The notes under the pieces: generated by a model
What the model was told of the DNA's origin: nothing
What the model saw: only the letters and a program-made list of their open reading frames with translations
Database searches by the model: none
Translations under genes and position numbers: made by a program
Part shown: positions 1 through 6,564 of the stretch, piece after piece
Position numbering within the stretch: the stretch's first letter is position 1
How the letters are laid out: each line of letters opens with the position of its first letter
Assembly (NCBI RefSeq): GCF_003334385.1
Contig: NZ_QOWN01000076.1
Strand: one strand, 5' to 3'
Origin: Escherichia coli
GTDB taxonomy: Bacteria; Pseudomonadota; Gammaproteobacteria; Enterobacterales; Enterobacteriaceae
Length of the DNA stretch: 6,564 nucleotides

Positions 1-242
1 AACGCGAGGCATCGTCTTAACGAGGCACCGAGGCGTCGCATTCTTCAGATGGTTCAACCCTTAAGTTAGCGCTTATGGGACACACAGATTCATTTTGTCT
101 TTCTTCAGCAGCAAAATACACTGCGGTTATTATTTAACCATTAAATCAACAAAAAATTTTACCTCATATTGATTTGACTGCTATTTTTGCTATTAATAGC
201 CAGAATTGCAGTGCTTTTATATCTGTGTATAGTGAGGTTACT

Positions 243-1727
243 ATGTCATTCGGTCAGCCTTGTGATGAGTTTCCCCTGAGTTCGCTGCCTCCACTCATTC
301 GTGATGCCGTTATTGAAGCTCAGCAAATTACGCAGGCTCCCCTTGGGCTTGTGGCAGCGTCTGCCCTGGGCGCTGTTTCACTTGTCTGCCAGAATCTGAT
401 TGATGTCTGCAGACTGAATACACTGCGGGGGCCGGTCTCTCTTTTTTTCCTGACGCTTGCCGAGTCCGGAGAACGAAAAACCGCAGTGGACAAATTATTA
501 ATGAAGCCCCTGTACCAGCAGGAGATGCAGTTATATTCCAGATACAAAAGTGAACTGGCTGTCTGGAAAAACAAGGAAGAGCTTTTAAAGGCTCAGAAAA
601 AAGCATTGTTGTCAAAACTGAATAAAGAACTCCGCAAAGGCGCGGATGAGTCAGAAACCCTCAGACAACTGGAAGTACTTCAGAAAAACAGTGCGGAAGA
701 ACCTGTGAGGTATAAATTCATTTTTAATGATGCCACGACTGCGGCAATTAAGAATCAGCTTTGTGGTAAATGGCGTTCAGTTGGTATTATGTCAGATGAA
801 GCCGGTATTATATTTGATGGATATACCCTGTCTGAGTTGCCTTTTATTAACAAAATGTGGGATGGCTCTGTATTGTCTGTGGACAGAAAGAATGAACCCG
901 AACAGATGATTGAAAATGCCAGAATGACGTTATCCCTCATGGTGCAACCCGGTCTTTTTGACCGATATATGGAGCGAAAAGGTTCTGTTGCCAGGGACAG
1001 TGGTTTTCTTGCCCGTTGTCTTATCAGTAAACCTGCAACCACGCAGGGGAAACGCTTTATTAACGGAGCTGTGATTCCGGGAGGATCATTAACGGCATTT
1101 CATGAACGATTAATGGAACTGGCCAGAGGCAGTATTGAAAAATCCAGTGAGGATGAACGGTATTGTCTGCATTTTTCGCCTGAAGCGCAAAAAATATTTA
1201 TTGAGCACTATAATGTTCTGGAGCAGGATTTATCCCCTTCCGGACCCTTAAGCCCGTTTCGGGGACATGTTTCAAAAAAAACAGAAAACATTGCAAGAAT
1301 TGCAGCGTTATTTCAGTATTTCAGCTATGGTGAAGGGAAAATCTCTGCCGATATCATGACGTCTGCTGTCGTAATAAGTTCGTGGTACACAGATGAATAT
1401 AAAAAATTATTTGCGTTACCTGATGAATCTGAACTGCAGCAGAAGGACGCCGAGGAGCTGTTCGACTGGCTCATTGAGGAGTGCCGCGGAGAATGCCCGC
1501 CCCGTGTCAGGAAAAATTATATTCTCCAGTGTGGCCCGGGCCGGTTCAGAAACAGGAAAAAACTGAACGCATTGCTGAACATTCTTGAATCTCAGTTCAG
1601 GCTTTCTGTCGTGCCGGAAGGAAAAACCATGTATGTTCTGCTTCCCCAGATAGCCAGTTTAAAGTTGTCTGATGTCTCTGGTATTTTTACCTCGGGTTAT
1701 CACTACAATAAGCTGAGAGCGAAGTAA
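243..1727 (+). CDS. DUF3987-domain protein, YfjI-like (family associated with replication/primase modules of integrative elements and satellites)
   Basis: Long ORF 174..1727 in the track. TTG at 174 has no Shine-Dalgarno; ATG at 243 is preceded by GAGG (234..237) with a 5-nt spacer, so 243 is the preferred start (494 aa). The N-terminus reads EFPLSSLPPLIRDAVIEAQQITQAPLGLVAASALGAVSL, which matches my recollection of the DUF3987 N-terminal signature (F-P-x-x-x-L-P-x-x-L-R-D ... Q-x-P ... small-residue helix). No overlapping ORF is comparably long. Family assignment is from memory, not a search. Confidence 0.7.
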   Translation: MSFGQPCDEFPLSSLPPLIRDAVIEAQQITQAPLGLVAASALGAVSLVCQNLIDVCRLNTLRGPVSLFFLTLAESGERKTAVDKLLMKPLYQQEMQLYSRYKSELAVWKNKEELLKAQKKALLSKLNKELRKGADESETLRQLEVLQKNSAEEPVRYKFIFNDATTAAIKNQLCGKWRSVGIMSDEAGIIFDGYTLSELPFINKMWDGSVLSVDRKNEPEQMIENARMTLSLMVQPGLFDRYMERKGSVARDSGFLARCLISKPATTQGKRFINGAVIPGGSLTAFHERLMELARGSIEKSSEDERYCLHFSPEAQKIFIEHYNVLEQDLSPSGPLSPFRGHVSKKTENIARIAALFQYFSYGEGKISADIMTSAVVISSWYTDEYKKLFALPDESELQQKDAEELFDWLIEECRGECPPRVRKNYILQCGPGRFRNRKKLNALLNILESQFRLSVVPEGKTMYVLLPQIASLKLSDVSGIFTSGYHYNKLRAK

Positions 1728-1786
1728 CCGGTGAGCAGTTTTTCTCCATTATGCTTCAGACTTAGATGATTGATTATTATGGGGAT

Positions 1787-1826
1787 TTCATCACCGATAT
1801 TCAGATGTATGAATATCGGTGATGAA
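1787..1826. repeat. Perfect 17-bp inverted repeat (TTCATCACCGATATTCA / TGAATATCGGTGATGAA) with 6-nt spacer, in the convergent intergenic region
   Basis: Read directly: arms 1787..1803 and 1810..1826 are exact reverse complements, spacer GATGTA. It sits 60 nt after the stop of the 243..1727 gene. No T-run follows on either strand, so it is not a canonical intrinsic terminator. A third copy of the half-site GGTGATGAA occurs at 1850..1858. Confidence 0.85.
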
Positions 1827-2048
1827 CTAAAGCTCAGGAGCTGCATGGTGGTGATGAATCAACAGGCATATAACTGATACCCGCCGGTCAGAAGTTCCAG
1901 CCTGCGACTTTCCTGTCTGCGTGCCCGCAGTCCGGCGTTCAGGTGCAGCGTGTGACAGAACGCACGGAGAGCGAAACGGCAGGCAGACAGGCCGTTCAGT
2001 CAGCCCTGGCACCCTGCCCGGATACCAGCTTCCCTGAAACAACTGGCA

Positions 2049-2651
2049 TCAGGTGCGCTTATCGTCAACCGTTGTGCGGTATGACAGGAGCACGTACTGA
2101 TCCATCAGATCCGTCAGTGCTGCGCTCTGCTTCTGACGGTTGATGATCCATTCCTCCAGCTCTTTTTCTGATTTCCGTTTCAGATTCTCCGTCCAGTCGT
2201 CAAGGCAGTTTCCGGTCATTAAATCAAGCCAGCAAAGCCAGACTAGTTTGAGGCGCAACTCCGTGCCACCAAACTGACGGAAGAGGCTGATCAGTTTATT
2301 TGCCAGAGAACGCTGCCTCAGACGTTCACATTCAGACAGGAGAATGCCTTCCAGCATCGGATGATGAACCAGCAGATGTTCACTGGTGCATAAATTCACT
2401 ATCAGATCATCATCCAGGGGCGGTGTGGCCCGTTTGTCAGGGCCATAAATCAGCCGGTGCAGGCTCTGGGGTACGATGGCAATCTCCGGTTTTTCACCAT
2501 TGAATGACACCCAACCGGGCGTCAGATTATGGAAGTAGTAGATATTCGGATGACACACGCCCCAGGATACGGCGTGCCGGGTGAAGCCGGTCAGCCATTT
2601 CTGGTAGCTTTCGTGGAGCCATTCGTAGCGGGTCTGATACTGTTGTTTCAT
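2049..2651 (-). CDS. Hypothetical protein (about 200 aa), unrecognised family, co-directional and downstream of alpA
   Basis: ORF 2049..2666 on the minus strand. The annotated first codon is GTG; GAGG (complement of 2661..2664) lies 9 nt upstream of the ATG at 2651 and 3 nt upstream of the ATG at 2657, so I prefer 2651 (2657 possible). It starts 94 nt downstream of the alpA stop on the same strand, suggesting an operon. The protein has mixed composition with no low-complexity runs (e.g. GWVSFNGEKPEIAIVPQSLHRLIYGPDKR, LEEWIINRQKQSAALTDLMDQ). I do not recognise the family. Confidence 0.55.
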   Translation of the reverse strand: MKQQYQTRYEWLHESYQKWLTGFTRHAVSWGVCHPNIYYFHNLTPGWVSFNGEKPEIAIVPQSLHRLIYGPDKRATPPLDDDLIVNLCTSEHLLVHHPMLEGILLSECERLRQRSLANKLISLFRQFGGTELRLKLVWLCWLDLMTGNCLDDWTENLKRKSEKELEEWIINRQKQSAALTDLMDQYVLLSYRTTVDDKRT

Positions 2652-2745
2652 TTTCATATTCCTCACGGGGATATAACAGGCAGCAGAATGCCGCCGGCAG
2701 GCCGGAGATTACGTCTGCTGCGGGTGAACGGATAACGGTCAGAAA

Positions 2746-2952
2746 TTACGGACGGGACTGTGCAATACGCGCCTGCAGCCAGGCTTCCACTTCACTTTTC
2801 AGCCAGCGGGAGCTGCGCTCCATTTTGATGGGGGCAGGAAAGCCCCCATCTTTGATGAGTTTGTAAAACCACTTATCGGTTAAGCCGGTAAGTTGAGTGA
2901 TAAACGCCATGTCGACCATCTGGTCATCCATCAGCGAAACAGGGGTAGCCAT
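2746..2952 (-). CDS. alpA: AlpA-family (phage/integrative-element) transcriptional regulator / excisionase-like HTH protein, 68 aa
   Basis: The C-terminal 68 aa of ORF 2746..3186 read MATPVSLMDDQMVDMAFITQLTGLTDKWFYKLIKDGGFPAPIKMERSSRWLKSEVEAWLQARIAQSRP. The ATG at 2950..2952 (complement) is preceded by GGAGG (complement of about 2960..2964). The small size, helix-turn-helix-like core and the motif W-x-x-S-E-V-E-A-W-L resemble the E. coli AlpA C-terminus (W-I-E-A-E-I-D-E-W-L) as I recall it. The 78-codon upstream extension is Pro/Arg/Ser-rich and not protein-like. Confidence 0.75.
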   Translation of the reverse strand: MATPVSLMDDQMVDMAFITQLTGLTDKWFYKLIKDGGFPAPIKMERSSRWLKSEVEAWLQARIAQSRP

Positions 2953-3238
2953 GAGAATGTTCCTCCGGATGTTGTTAAACCAGCCGGTGTGGTCATGAAA
3001 ACAGCGCGCCACCTTCACTGGCATAACAACCGGGGAGAAACGTAAAAAATAATCGGGAATGTGGCTGTCCGGAGATAAACGGGGGGGATTGCGATGGCAG
3101 AGCCGTAGCGGAATCCCGGGTGGTTGTTGCGAAAAGATGCTTCCGCACGCACGCGCGATAAAGGAGGGAGGACTTTCGTGAGACAAGGGGAAAACTAGCG
3201 TTCTGATAATTGCAGAGTTGTTTTCGGAGGTGGTTACA

Positions 3239-3358
3239 GTGAGTCAGCCCGTTCCTGGCGAGGAGGAGACTGATATCACCGATGGGATAAGGCTGTCTGA
3301 TTGGTATTATAAATATAAGAAGTCATCAGAGAGTAACGTAAAGGATTTGCCAGAGTAA
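3239..3358 (+). CDS. Candidate small ORF (39 aa, MSQPVPGEEETDITDGIRLSDWYYKYKKSSESNVKDLPE), divergent from alpA; speculative
   Basis: GTG at 3239 with GGAGG (3226..3230) 8 nt upstream, in-frame stop TAA at 3356..3358. It is below the ORF-track size cutoff. No homology is recognised, and a short ORF next to a good SD can arise by chance. Confidence 0.2.
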   Translation: MSQPVPGEEETDITDGIRLSDWYYKYKKSSESNVKDLPE

Positions 3359-3399
3359 GCTAAGAGAGTAAATCTCTCCGGTAACAGAGCGCTGTGAAT

Positions 3400-3431
3400 C
3401 GTTCATGTATCAGAGTGCAAATACATGAACG
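3400..3431. repeat. 11-bp inverted repeat (CGTTCATGTAT / ATACATGAACG) with 10-nt spacer; candidate operator or RNA hairpin
   Basis: Read directly: 3400..3410 and 3421..3431 are exact reverse complements. There is no adjacent T-run on either strand. The arm sequence ATACATGAAC recurs at 4156..4165. Confidence 0.8.
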
Positions 3432-4155
3432 CTGATGCGTAAAATCAGCAGTGACACGCCAGCTCCCCCTGTGCCCATTCCTGTATAAGACATGAACTGA
3501 GCGTATTAATGCTCCTGCTCTGAGACTGAGCCGGTGAGTGAGGGGCTGAGAAATCCCTCTTGACACAGCTCTAAACCAGAAATACTTCCCCGGTTGTTGC
3601 GGTGCGTCCGGATCCCCGATAACGGAACACTAAGGCTGTATTGCGGGACACCGGGTAAGTGGCAGCCTGTAATGTGTTCTGTCAACGCCAGAAAAAATGA
3701 TTTTTCACACGCGTTATAGACTCACTCCTGTGGACCTGGAAGCCCGTAACTCTGCGGTTGCCCACCGACTGACGGAACTGACCGCAAACTTTACGATCGT
3801 GTTCCTGCTTCCTTCTGGTCACCTGAACTTTTAGCCAGCGCTACGATAAGTCCGGTGTTATCTGCACCGGAGGACCGGGAACATTAAGCGGTATAGCGAC
3901 AACAAAGAATTCGAAATCAAAAGGGAATGGTGCCGGAGGCGTGGGCGGTAATAGGCTGATTTTCAGGTATTACCGGCTTACAACGTGTGGTTGATATTGA
4001 GGGGCTGTGAGTTTCGCGTATTTGTCAGAAACCCAGATGAGTTTTCCTTTATGGGACGAAATAAGGCAGCGGCAATACCTGGAAAAATTTAATATGGTAT
4101 GAAGGAGAACCTGTCGGTTACGCTTAATATACACGGTACACTGTCAGCTCAGGGG

Positions 4156-4165
4156 ATACATGAAC
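4156..4165. repeat. Additional direct copy of the 10-mer ATACATGAAC (same as 3421..3430), just downstream of the zinc-ribbon gene stop
   Basis: Exact 10-mer match read from the sequence. A related 8-mer ACATGAAC is at 3490..3497. Chance recurrence of a given 10-mer in 6.5 kb is unlikely but not negligible. Confidence 0.5.
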
Positions 4166-4172
4166 CGTTATC

Positions 4173-4373
4173 TCACCAGCTACACAGTATACACACACTG
4201 ACGCTGACAGTAGTCAGCAGGACCACAATAATCAGCGCCAGCAGTATGGTAACGATACGGTCTGTATTCCGGTAGTAGCCGAAGGGGTCGACAGAACCAC
4301 AATACGGGCAACACACTGTATTATGAGTAATCGCGTTTCCACAGTCCCTGCACTTCTTTTTGCGTATCACCAT
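4173..4373 (-). CDS. Small zinc-ribbon protein with C-terminal transmembrane helix (66 aa)
   Basis: ORF 4173..4376 on the minus strand. The preferred start is the ATG at 4371..4373 (complement), with GAGGAGGGAG immediately upstream (AGGAGG about 5 nt before the ATG). The protein has two CxxC-type pairs (CRDCG ... CCPYCG) followed by a hydrophobic stretch IVTILLALIIVVLLTTVSVSVCILC. It is divergent from the YagK-like gene across a 200-bp AT-rich intergenic region. Confidence 0.5.
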   Translation of the reverse strand: MVIRKKKCRDCGNAITHNTVCCPYCGSVDPFGYYRNTDRIVTILLALIIVVLLTTVSVSVCILCSW

Positions 4374-4545
4374 CACTCCCTCCTCACAGCCTTACCCGTA
4401 ACCGATTTTTTACATTAAAAAAACAACGCTGAAAATTCAACCGTCAGTCCGGAGACGACCGTTCGGGTTATCACAGAGTGCCTGAGACAGTGTCCTGCCG
4501 GAGGTCACCTCAGGGGCTCTGCGCATTTTTTACGACGTGGTTATT

Positions 4546-4562
4546 CCGTATGAACCATACGG
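4546..4562. promoter_or_regulatory. 17-bp perfect palindrome CCGTATGAACCATACGG overlapping the Shine-Dalgarno of the YagK/YfjJ-like gene
   Basis: Read directly: 4546..4552 (CCGTATG) and 4556..4562 (CATACGG) are reverse complements with a 3-nt centre. The right arm overlaps GGAG (4561..4564), which is the SD for the ATG at 4573. It could be a dimeric-regulator site or an RNA hairpin occluding the RBS. Confidence 0.4.
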
Positions 4563-4572
4563 AGATTTAACC

Positions 4573-5142
4573 ATGACCTACAAATACAACCCCTTCTGGC
4601 AGCAACGTATTCGTGAGACGGTGCGGCACGCACTGAATGTTCATCCCCGCCTGACGGCATTGCGGGTTGACCTGCGTCTCCCGGATGTACCGGCAGCAAC
4701 GGACGCAGCTGTGATATCCCGCTTCATCAATGCCCTGAAAGCCCGAATCGACGCTTACCAGAAACGTAAGCATCGGGAAGGTAAACGCGTGCATCCCACA
4801 ACCCTGCATTACGTCTGGGCCCGGGAGTTTGGGGAGTGCAAAGGTAAAAAACACTATCACCTGATGCTGCTGGTCAACCGGGATACCTGGTGTCGTGCCG
4901 GTGATTACCGCGCTCCGGAGTCTCTGGCCGGGATGATTAAACAGGCGTGGTGCAGTGCCCTGGGAGTGGATGTCGGGTGCCATGCCACGCTGGTGCATTT
5001 TCCGGCCTGGCCGGCGGTGTGGCTGGCGCGTAATGATGACACCGGCTTTCAGCAAGTGCTGGAACGTGCTGACTATCTGGCGAAGGAGCATACCAAAGCT
5101 CACTGCACCGGTGAGCGCAATTTTGGCTGTAGCCGGAGTTGA
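4573..5142 (+). CDS. YagK/YfjJ-family (inovirus Gp2-like) protein with HUH-like and YxxK-like motifs, 189 aa
   Basis: ORF 4537..5142 begins with GTG; the ATG at 4573 has GGAG (4561..4564) 8 nt upstream, so 4573 is preferred. The N-terminus YKYNPFWQQRIRETVRHALNVHPRLTALRVDLRLP matches my recollection of the YagK/YfjJ family. HYH followed by LMLLVN (HYH at 4852..4860) is an HUH-type motif, and YLAK lies near the C-terminus. The long antisense ORF 4567..5436 is rejected as GC-driven. Confidence 0.7.
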   Translation: MTYKYNPFWQQRIRETVRHALNVHPRLTALRVDLRLPDVPAATDAAVISRFINALKARIDAYQKRKHREGKRVHPTTLHYVWAREFGECKGKKHYHLMLLVNRDTWCRAGDYRAPESLAGMIKQAWCSALGVDVGCHATLVHFPAWPAVWLARNDDTGFQQVLERADYLAKEHTKAHCTGERNFGCSRS

Positions 5143-5219
5143 GCACGACTGGCGCGCCAATATCCGGCAAACCAAAAGTATGGGTTGTTGTCTGGCGGCA
5201 ACGATGTATCCACTCGCCC

Positions 5220-5243
5220 ACTGACTGTTTTTTACGTCAGTGT
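5220..5243 (+). other. Possible hairpin (CACTGAC / GTCAGTG, 7-bp stem, 10-nt T-rich loop) in the intergenic region after the YagK-like gene
   Basis: Read directly. The T-run is inside the loop rather than after the stem, so terminator function is uncertain. Confidence 0.25.
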
Positions 5244-5395
5244 TCCATTGTGTGACAACCACAGTGCTGTAACAGCAACCAGCCTGCTTTACCCAAACTC
5301 CAGTCCAGATTTTAACTGAACCGCCATTCACACCCTGACCACGCTGCCCGTACCGGGACGGCTGTTGCCTGCGTGTCGTCTGGCGGCTGAGGTAT

Positions 5396-5803
5396 ATGAC
5401 TATGTACGCAAAATCCTTTATCGCTCTTGATGGCAACGGACGTCTGACGGGCGCCCGTACTGCACAGGCCGCACCTTATGCTAACTACACCTGCCACTTG
5501 TGTGGCAGTGCACTCAGATACCATCCGCAATACGAAACTGAACTTCCCTGGTTTGAACACACTGACGACAGGCTGACAGAGCACGGTCAACAGTGCCCTT
5601 ATGTCAGGCCGGAGCGCAGAGAAATACAGTTGATTAAACGTCTGCAGCAATTCGTACCGGATGCCTTACCCGTGGTGCGTAAAGCCAGCTGGCACTGCAG
5701 ACAATGTCACCACGATTATTATGGGGAGCAGTACTGCACACACTGCCAGACCGGAGGATTCAGTATTCCCCGGACAACTCAGGAGGAAATATGCGAATTC
5801 TGA
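5396..5803 (+). CDS. Cys-rich putative zinc-binding protein, paralog A (135 aa), unrecognised family
   Basis: ORF 5396..5803. GAGG (5389..5392) precedes the ATG at 5396 by 3 nt and the ATG at 5402 by 9 nt, so the start is one of the two. It contains CHLCG ... PWFEH ... W-H-C-R-Q-C-H-H-D-Y-Y-G-E-Q-Y-C-T-H-C-Q-T-G, and aligns along its length with the downstream protein. Confidence 0.6.
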   Translation: MTMYAKSFIALDGNGRLTGARTAQAAPYANYTCHLCGSALRYHPQYETELPWFEHTDDRLTEHGQQCPYVRPERREIQLIKRLQQFVPDALPVVRKASWHCRQCHHDYYGEQYCTHCQTGGFSIPRTTQEEICEF

Positions 5804-6225
5804 ACTGTTATATGGCGAATGACAGCAAAGGCCATTTTGTTACGGCGAAAGAAGCTGCGAAGCACAACCGACAGGACGTTTTGTGCTGTGTGTCCTGTGG
5901 ATGCCCGTTAACACTTCAGCGGGGCAATGACGGACAACCACCGTGGTTTGAACATGACCAGATGACTGTCGCTGAAAAAATCCTGCTGCGATGTACCTGG
6001 CTTGACCCGGCAGAGAAAGAGGCCCGTCGTTTGCATCTGCAGGGCATGACGGTTCCGGATTATACGGTGAAGGTGAGAAAGTGGTTTTGTGTGATGTGTG
6101 ACGAAGATTATGAGGGGGAAAAGTGCTGCCCACGCTGCGGTACCGGGGTATACAGCAGGGCGTGGGGGCGGCAGGAGGTGCCGTCGGAAGATGCCAGGGC
6201 TGATAATCCGTTACAGAGGCTGTAA
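5791..6225 (+). CDS. Cys-rich putative zinc-binding protein, paralog B (144 aa), translationally coupled to paralog A
   Basis: The ATG at 5791 has a strong AGGAGG (5781..5786) 4 nt upstream and overlaps the last 13 nt of paralog A (stop 5801..5803). The ORF-track start at 5704 is an unsupported extension. It contains CCVSCGC ... PPWFEH ... W-F-C-V-M-C-D-E-D-Y-E-G-E-K-C-C-P-R-C-G-T-G. Confidence 0.6.
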   Translation: MRILNCYMANDSKGHFVTAKEAAKHNRQDVLCCVSCGCPLTLQRGNDGQPPWFEHDQMTVAEKILLRCTWLDPAEKEARRLHLQGMTVPDYTVKVRKWFCVMCDEDYEGEKCCPRCGTGVYSRAWGRQEVPSEDARADNPLQRL

Positions 6226-6461
6226 TGGTTGCCTCCGGAGCAGTTTGCGGTGATGCCTTTCCCGGGAATGGATTGCCGGTGCGGGGACTGTGGAGCTTAA
6301 TTCCGGTGTTGGTGGCCTTTCCGTTGATTTTATGCCAACAGCCCCCTGTGACTGACAGGCTGCCTCGTCATTCCATTCGTATCTCCAGTAACAGGGGGTT
6401 GTATTGTATTTTATTGTGCCGGTTCAGGTGTGCGTTTCCCGGCGCGTCTGCACCGGCTTAA
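6225..6461 (+). CDS. Possible small protein (78 aa) whose ATG overlaps the paralog B stop (TAATG); low confidence
   Basis: ATG at 6225..6227 overlaps TAA at 6223..6225, with GAGG (6216..6219) 5 nt upstream. The protein is Pro/Gly/Leu/Arg-rich with one hydrophobic stretch (LWSLIPVLVAFPLIL) and could equally be a GC-driven artefact. Confidence 0.2.
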   Translation: MVASGAVCGDAFPGNGLPVRGLWSLIPVLVAFPLILCQQPPVTDRLPRHSIRISSNRGLYCILLCRFRCAFPGASAPA

Positions 6462-6564
6462 CCAAATTCAACAGGGATAAAATAGTGGTAAGCGTACAGC
6501 CTGAACCGTCTGGTCAGAATCTGACGAATTAGACAAAGTGGTGTCCACCAAATAAGTAGTGGGA

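Follow-up and report, generated by a model that had tools for sequence, protein, structure and literature searches.

A putative exchangeable, AT-rich yfjI cassette in the host-like backbone of a common Ag43/CP4-44-type island of Escherichia coli

The stretch of DNA analyzed herein (termed the window; 6,564 nt, presented as one strand) comes from contig NZ_QOWN01000076.1 of the Escherichia coli assembly GCF_003334385.1 and is a piece of a common, multi-copy chromosomal island of the Ag43/CP4-44 type. It represents the regulatory and replication end of this integrative island, with yfjI, the gene for a putative helicase of the DUF3987 family, on the left and a gene of the inovirus Gp2 family followed by two zinc-ribbon genes on the right. 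An earlier reading by eye of the letters and open reading frames (ORFs), here termed the sequence-only reading, had described an AT-richer left module and a GC-rich right module, consistent with different evolutionary origins. We propose, with considerable confidence, that the contrast reflects an exchangeable AT-rich yfjI cassette residing in a host-like island backbone, by which two lineages have been joined. The features of the window are as follows, with gene coordinates taken from the RefSeq annotation of strain A12 and converted to window positions.

1-78, strand not given: right end of IS421 (IS4 family), matching E. coli IS421 sites at 99% or more.
77-1879, plus strand: in-window part of the AT-rich yfjI cassette, delimited by a compositional change-point and by alignment to yfjI-less islands.
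243-1727, plus strand: yfjI, DUF3987-family putative helicase (Pfam DUF3987, PHROG helicase).
1652-2065, strand not given: junction zone where the cassette ends on the right, defined by homology breaks against paralogous islands.
2049-2651, minus strand: backbone gene for a 200-aa hypothetical protein (RefSeq annotation; no family match).
2746-2952, minus strand: backbone gene for an AlpA-like helix-turn-helix regulator or excisionase (PHROG excisionase/regulator).
3685-3818, plus strand: relic of hha (Hha/YmoA family), located by tblastn with the intact Hha of ATCC 25922.
3697-3834, plus strand: 45-aa hypothetical ORF (RefSeq annotation).
4173-4373, minus strand: gene for a 66-aa protein with a zinc ribbon and a membrane helix (RefSeq; PHROG unknown-function families).
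4573-5142, plus strand: inovirus Gp2-family gene with the YagK/YfjJ C-terminal domain (Pfam YagK_YfjJ_C).
5402-5803, plus strand: zinc-ribbon gene 1 (DUF7828 and Zn_ribbon_11, Pfam).
5791-6225, plus strand: zinc-ribbon gene 2 (RefSeq annotation).
6490-6564, plus strand: left terminal repeat of an IS66-family element, starting GTAAGCG (from the sequence; an IS66-like tnpA lies beyond it in A12).

Base composition is not uniform across the window. Overall the GC content is 50.0%, while yfjI (243-1727) has 45.1% (0.519, 0.384, and 0.448 at the first, second, and third codon positions, GC1 to GC3) and the region from 4573 to 6225 has 54.9%, and the base counts of these two regions are clearly different (Fisher test, p = 4e-8). 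The sequence-only reading had placed yfjI in the low-to-mid 40s, which the computed value bears out, and 4573-6225 in the high 50s, which proved to be 3-4 points too high for what is a mid-50s region. Gp2 is the richest part of the latter, at 57.7% over the annotated coding sequence (CDS) and 56.8% over the ORF 4537-5142, and the annotated CDSs of zinc-ribbon genes 1 and 2 have 52.2 and 53.6%. Entropy segmentation finds a single strong change-point at position 1879, separating 43.7% GC on the left from 52.5% on the right, with a score reached by none of 200 shuffles; further division at 2034 has marginal support (p = 0.015) and the right segment stays whole at p < 0.01. The window is therefore AT-rich up to about 1879 and then continues as one backbone of about 52% GC, within which 4573-6225 is not a separate block. 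A scan for promoter and terminator consensus sequences gave no enrichment over shuffled sequences and nothing at the change-point. The host baseline was 200 kb of K-12 core chromosome, with ORFs standing in for annotated genes, and this may differ from the source strain. Among core windows of 1.5 kb (mean 50.9% GC, standard deviation 2.9), yfjI with its 45.1% ranks at the 4th percentile and 4573-6225 with its 54.9% at the 95th. The GC contrast is thus real and moderately unusual but not extreme.

Third codon positions and codon usage show where the deviation lies. GC3 is 0.448 in yfjI and 0.54-0.63 in the other six genes, the seven being jointly heterogeneous (p = 2.7e-5) and the six without yfjI homogeneous (chi-square p = 0.65); yfjI against the other six pooled (0.598) gives p = 2e-7. 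Relative to the K-12 core, yfjI has z scores of -2.9 for GC and -2.2 for GC3, a codon adaptation index (CAI) of 0.388, which is the lowest in the window and has a rank of 0.9% in a set of 109 core ORFs, and a rare-codon frequency of 36 per 1000 compared with 10 in core genes. By GC, GC3, and codon usage, yfjI is the one gene that falls outside the host range. Gp2 and the two zinc-ribbon genes fall within it, with GC3 z scores from -0.46 to +1.23 and, when concatenated, a codon bias of 0.279, which 40% of length-matched core genes equal or exceed; their tetranucleotide correlation with the host is low (0.58, in the lowest 6%). Since yfjI alone deviates in GC3 and the codons on the right are host-like, the structure is a single AT-rich gene in a host-like backbone and not two opposed modules. 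The compositional contrast of the sequence-only reading thus stands, but its borders and its two-module picture do not, as the right-hand unit runs from about 2035 to 6489, is host-like, and is not markedly GC-rich. Among the checks suggested at that stage, GC3 and codon adaptation single out yfjI as an outlier, whereas tetranucleotides do not tell the two halves apart.

The borders of the AT-rich stretch are given by islands that lack yfjI. In those of strains HS/LAM_HS and Z1323CEC0004, homology to the island ends at window coordinate -890, just past the GTPase gene, and restarts at 2033-2065, at the 3' end of the 200-aa gene, and unrelated genes of 305 or 383 aa occupy the space between these points. 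Because homology stops and resumes in this way, the AT-rich stretch can be delimited as a cassette of some 2.9 kb, from -890 to about 1650-2035, with 42.9% GC in full and 43.4% in its in-window part (77-1879). In strain A12 it lies between flanks of 56.2 and 52.2% GC and is made up of yfjI and, ahead of it, about 1.1 kb of non-coding leader with 38% GC; the 1.2 kb 5' of yfjI in this strain has 38% GC and beyond it are the GTPase gene (59%) and Ag43 (58%). The slot between the GTPase gene and the 200-aa gene is found with three fillings, namely yfjI, a 305-aa RepB-RCR_reg-like gene, and a 383-aa gene. In the compared loci the slot or its filling is at 18937-21960 in L001, 3505-5580 in L025, and 1206-3472 in L004.

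The segments of the window are also unequally distributed among the 5426 complete E. coli genomes searched. The yfjI segment (77-1879) is present at 2400 places in 1877 genomes, the middle segment (1880-4450) at 7946 places in 3712 genomes, and the right segment (4450-6489) at 8416 places in 3838 genomes. The two unrelated fillings are present at 2469 and 2578 places, so that the three fillings sum to 7447, close to the 7946-8416 copies of the backbone. In the three paralogous islands that do carry yfjI, nucleotide identity is 84.6-89.6% in the cassette, 94.5-97.3% in the left flank, and 92-93% in the right-hand block, and the right homology break in the alignments is at 1652, 1955, or 2014-2065 depending on the paralog. 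A GC-rich stretch of 155 bp (1880-2034, 65.8% GC) with no match to an RNA family or a protein lies at the right edge of the cassette. Also within the zone of homology breaks, and between the convergent yfjI and 200-aa genes, is a perfect 17-bp inverted repeat (1787-1803 and 1810-1826) with a 6-nt loop and no T-run, which folds at -34.4 kcal/mol (z = -4.1).

Outside E. coli, the two parts of the window have different companions. A scan of one genome per species gave 16 loci with YfjI relatives in other Enterobacterales, with full-length identities of 48-55% and a maximum of 60% in one partial match, and in 14 of these a Gp2-family (yfjJ) gene comes directly after yfjI, within 200-400 bp, on the same strand in 13. 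At these loci yfjI has 38-47% GC and the following yfjJ 38-49% (47% or less in 13 of the 14), and in CP4-57 of K-12 the genes alpA, yfjI, and yfjJ have 47, 37.9, and 40.4% GC, respectively. The Gp2 of the window shares no more than 36-42% identity with these yfjI-linked yfjJ genes. Its closest relatives outside E. coli, with 63-68% amino acid identity, are from Enterobacter, Serratia, Klebsiella, and Salmonella, where they sit in Gp2-AlpA clusters of 49-63% GC, and no DUF3987 gene occurs within 8 kb of these clusters in the four genera. The AlpA-like protein of the window is 61-68% identical to the products of Phage_AlpA genes that come after Gp2 in other genera, one or two DUF7828 zinc-ribbon genes follow Gp2-AlpA in Enterobacter, Serratia, and Klebsiella, and these islands share further backbone families depending on the locus, including YfjT, WYL, RadC, DUF932, the CbtA/CbeA pair, and a GTPase. 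In Enterobacter and Serratia a RepB-RCR_reg-like gene precedes Gp2 and is homologous to the 305-aa slot filling (E = 4e-9 to 5e-12). All components of the Gp2-AlpA-DUF7828 zinc-ribbon module are present in the window, but the gene order differs. In the other genera (loci L029-L034) Gp2, AlpA, and zinc ribbon are codirectional with AlpA in the middle, while in the E. coli islands AlpA shares the opposite strand with the 200-aa gene, 1.6 kb 5' of Gp2. The different position and strand of AlpA indicate that the backbone has been rearranged.

Taken together, these comparisons suggest how the island was assembled. The GC step near 1.9 kb is the right border of the AT-rich cassette of about 2.9 kb, placed in the slot between the island GTPase gene and the 200-aa gene, and the conserved backbone comprises the genes for the 200-aa, AlpA-like, and 66-aa zinc-ribbon proteins, together with the hha relic, Gp2, and zinc-ribbon genes 1 and 2, with GC3 and codon usage like those of the host. 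The zinc-ribbon pair of this backbone can be described as two DUF7828 zinc-ribbon genes, the assignment of gene 1 being confirmed by Pfam. The yfjI lineage, AT-rich in every host examined, normally travels as alpA-yfjI-yfjJ, as in CP4-57, and the Gp2-AlpA-zinc-ribbon set belongs to a different lineage that elsewhere lacks yfjI and stands beside a RepB-RCR_reg-like gene. Recombination between related islands is the most likely source of the hybrid, and such an exchange could have used the conserved flanks as homology, with the yfjI cassette supplanting the RepB-like gene. This event is not a recent one. In a paralogous island of ATCC 25922, with 88-92% identity across the segments that still align, yfjI has 46.0% GC and Gp2 57.9%, with about 92% nucleotide identity to the window in both genes, and since this paralog keeps the contrast the join is old and predates the divergence of the island copies. 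The proposal of the sequence-only reading that the island unites segments with different evolutionary origins is hence supported by the comparative evidence, that is, by the unequal distribution, the replaceable slot, the yfjI-yfjJ pairs elsewhere, and the yfjI-less Gp2 clusters, rather than by composition alone, but with borders other than those it had drawn.

The persistence of such an AT-rich cassette may involve silencing by H-NS and Hha. The AT-rich leader would by its composition be in keeping with H-NS/Hha-silenced island DNA, and related duplicated island genes were reported to be H-NS/Hha-repressed in strain 042 (PMC6480617).

Several points weigh against the cassette proposal. A difference of at least 9.8 GC points at equal spacing occurs in 3.3% of core window pairs, so the contrast is within the tails of normal variation. 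GC-normalized dinucleotide signatures do not separate left from right, with 13% of adjacent core segments differing more, and both halves are about equally atypical of the core by dinucleotides and tetranucleotides (3-8% tail); oligonucleotide signatures at these lengths neither support nor refute different origins. The place counts were made by megablast and miss copies below about 85% identity, and about a dozen islands or loci were examined gene by gene. Relics of alpA, yfjH, yfjJ, or an integrase were not found in the cassette and its leader, and, with no alpA or yfjJ relic there, yfjI itself is what argues for descent from a CP4-57-type module. Finally, the direction of replacement is inferred, the yfjI-less arrangement being likely the older, with yfjI as the incomer, because the 305-aa filling is homologous to the RepB-like gene that precedes Gp2 elsewhere.

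Three other explanations of the contrast were considered and all appear improbable. The whole segment could have one origin, with the contrast simply reflecting gene-to-gene variation imposed by protein needs. The many Lys, Asn, Ile, Phe, and Glu residues of YfjI would then hold its gene at an AT-rich composition in any location. The low GC1 (0.519) and GC2 (0.384) of yfjI do indicate that amino acid composition contributes, its homologs have 38-47% GC in all hosts examined, the contrast is within the 3-5% tails of core variation, and the dinucleotide signatures of left and right are not distinct. However, it is GC3, mostly free of protein constraint, that differs most (0.448 versus 0.598, p = 2e-7), the non-coding leader is still more AT-rich at 38%, and the low-GC stretch is at the same time a replaceable cassette with a separate distribution. 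We regard this explanation as improbable, if the least improbable of the three. Marginally less credible than an origin in protein needs is that an ancestral yfjI-yfjJ pair was split by insertion of the 200-aa, AlpA-like, hha, and small zinc-ribbon genes and that the Gp2 side alone drifted to host composition. The occurrence of yfjI beside a Gp2-family gene is the rule in other genera, and YfjI (48-55%, full length) and Gp2 (36-42%) are at a similar distance from the canonical pair, but drift should have affected both genes, and GC3 is 0.45 in yfjI and 0.63 in Gp2. Moreover, the Gp2-AlpA-zinc-ribbon set is intact in four other genera with no yfjI nearby, and E. coli islands with the same backbone carry other genes in the yfjI slot.

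The remaining explanation, and the one to which we give the least credence, is a recent import of an AT-rich segment from a low-GC donor, the composition of which has not yet drifted. It would account for the lowest CAI in the window and the excess of rare codons in yfjI, but the cassette has the same composition in paralogous islands that have diverged by 10-15% at the nucleotide level, and its presence in 1877 genomes implies a long residence in E. coli. An old exchange of a yfjI cassette between related islands is thus the explanation we favor. A rather doubtful extension of it, yet one that we rate above any of these three alternatives, is that the slot is a true three-way exchange site for alternative replication-control genes, each present in about one-third of some 8000 copies. 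If so, the mode of replication of an excised island, or its partner in replication, could depend on the filling, which might for example act as an incompatibility or specificity determinant and so allow several copies of the island to coexist per genome.

The YfjI protein itself matches the Pfam DUF3987 model (PF13148) over positions 1-363 of 364 (E = 1.6e-95) and a PHROG DNA helicase family (5.5e-82), and it is 53% identical to K-12 YfjI. The motifs TLAESGERK(T/S) and MSDEAG are invariant in six aligned proteins, but the first is not a canonical Walker A motif, and the helicase role is putative. A longer reading of the gene from a TTG start at 174 was rejected, as the homologs align from the ATG at 243. 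The last approximately 30 codons (1638-1727) are wholly different between paralogous islands, and in the aligned proteins the tail past about residue 466 is variable, matching the positions of the right breaks at the nucleotide level. Since the difference coincides with the homology break at 1652, the alternative C-terminal tails of YfjI can be ascribed to recombination.

The backbone genes are a mixed set. The 200-aa gene (51.9% GC, GC3 0.62) encodes a protein with no match in Pfam, NCBIfam, PHROG, or PADLOC but with a 33%-identical relative in a Salmonella island, and the AlpA-like gene (52.7% GC, GC3 0.62) matches PHROG excisionase/regulator families at 4.5e-9. The hha relic lacks the first approximately 24 codons and has a frameshift near 3780; it was detected in two frames with the intact island Hha of ATCC 25922 as the tblastn query (E = 7e-12) and gives a weak NCBIfam Hha match, and paralogous islands have intact, partial, or differently damaged hha at the same position. 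The 66-aa gene is divergent from Gp2 and matches PHROG families of unknown function at 2e-5. Gp2 (GC3 0.63) covers the entire Pfam YagK_YfjJ_C model (PF11726, positions 1-170 of 170, E = 4.8e-48), and a weak match to REP_ORF2-G2P (3.3e-5) hints that it may resemble rolling-circle initiators. Zinc-ribbon gene 1 matches Pfam DUF7828 (5.2e-31) and Zn_ribbon_11 (8.4e-9), and the two zinc-ribbon genes are tandem paralogs with about 31% amino acid identity and a 13-nt overlap that cross-hit each other in tblastn searches. An ORF of 289 aa antisense to Gp2 (4567-5436, minus strand) is unannotated in the RefSeq records inspected and probably exists only because the coding strand facing it is GC-rich. 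Scanning the entire window against Rfam (E up to 0.1) returned zero RNA families, hence the gene-poor stretch from 2953 to 4172 is not explained by known RNA. The hha relic makes up part of that stretch. A PADLOC scan of all window proteins and of both alternative slot proteins gave zero matches, which leaves a reading of the slot as a defense hotspot unsupported.

With respect to its wider context, bases 77-6564 are 99.7-100% identical to chromosomal DNA in many E. coli strains, 969 of the 5426 complete genomes contain 80% or more of the window as a single piece, and its sequence occurs in several copies per genome. The segment is located in the leuX/fec/nan region of strain A12, where the direction away from yfjI leads into an array of GTPase, Ag43, IrmA, DUF932, antirestriction, JAB, DUF987, YeeU, and CbtA genes. 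The synteny of an Ag43/CP4-44-like backbone (GTPase, Ag43, DUF932, antirestriction, RadC/JAB, DUF987, and YeeU/CbtA) is therefore evident in A12 and in paralogous islands, with these genes lying outside the window. Both ends of the window are mobile elements. Bases 1-80 have 8423 matches of 99% identity or more in E. coli, beside annotated IS421 transposase genes, and island homology begins at base 77, so the IS421 end is inserted about 165 bp 5' of the yfjI start codon, with the loss of most of the 38%-GC leader. The junction of IS421 and island (1-200) is absent from all of the complete genomes searched. At the other end, an IS66-like tnpA starts 16 bp past the window end in strain A12, and the island segment is thus bracketed by two different insertion sequences, IS421 and an IS66-family element.

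The mosaic composition of genomic islands is already known and this island type is described in the literature, and the three-filling yfjI slot worked out in this analysis is a minor and descriptive addition. It matters little beyond annotation, where a GC step first spotted without computation turned out to mark a cassette border in an E. coli island that is very common. Nevertheless, the three slot fillings illustrate neatly how paralogous islands exchange modules and could guide work on whether such "cryptic" islands still replicate or excise.

Comparison with characterized systems places the window between several known types. AgaPH, a PriCT-DUF3987 protein, is a demonstrated 5'-3' helicase (PMC11724360). 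YfjI shares with it the full-length DUF3987 model, and the conserved motifs of YfjI may be Walker-like, but in the Pfam scan YfjI lacks PriCT, it has no adjacent primase-polymerase gene, and its helicase activity is a prediction from sequence. Like CP4-57 of K-12, the island has a DUF3987 YfjI, a yfjI that is AT-rich relative to the host, and a Gp2/YagK-YfjJ gene. It differs from CP4-57 in that yfjI has no yfjJ directly 3' and is followed by the convergent 200-aa gene, while Gp2 starts 2846 bp past the yfjI stop codon, is of another lineage, is GC-rich, and is 36% identical to K-12 YfjJ. In addition, there is no AlpA-like CDS in the 1.2-kb leader of A12, and in the window an IS421 end stands 5' of yfjI.

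Islands of the flu-yeeR-irmA/Ag43 kind with extra hha are reportedly the subject of a further paper on duplicated regions in pathogenic E. coli. The same neighbors in A12, from GTPase, Ag43, and IrmA to YeeU/CbtA, together with the relic at the hha position and the multiple copies, ally the window with Ag43/CP4-44-like islands. Duplicated island regions of CP4-44-like type with extra hha copies have been described in pathogenic E. coli, in a paper where a term search for yfjI, alpA, zinc, and GC content gave no match (PMC6480617). More generally, mosaic islands have modules of different history next to each other, differing in GC content and codon usage, with the AT-rich parts being usual targets of H-NS-type silencing (PMC6606824, a review), and the window is the same in kind, with a modest GC step of 9-10 points.

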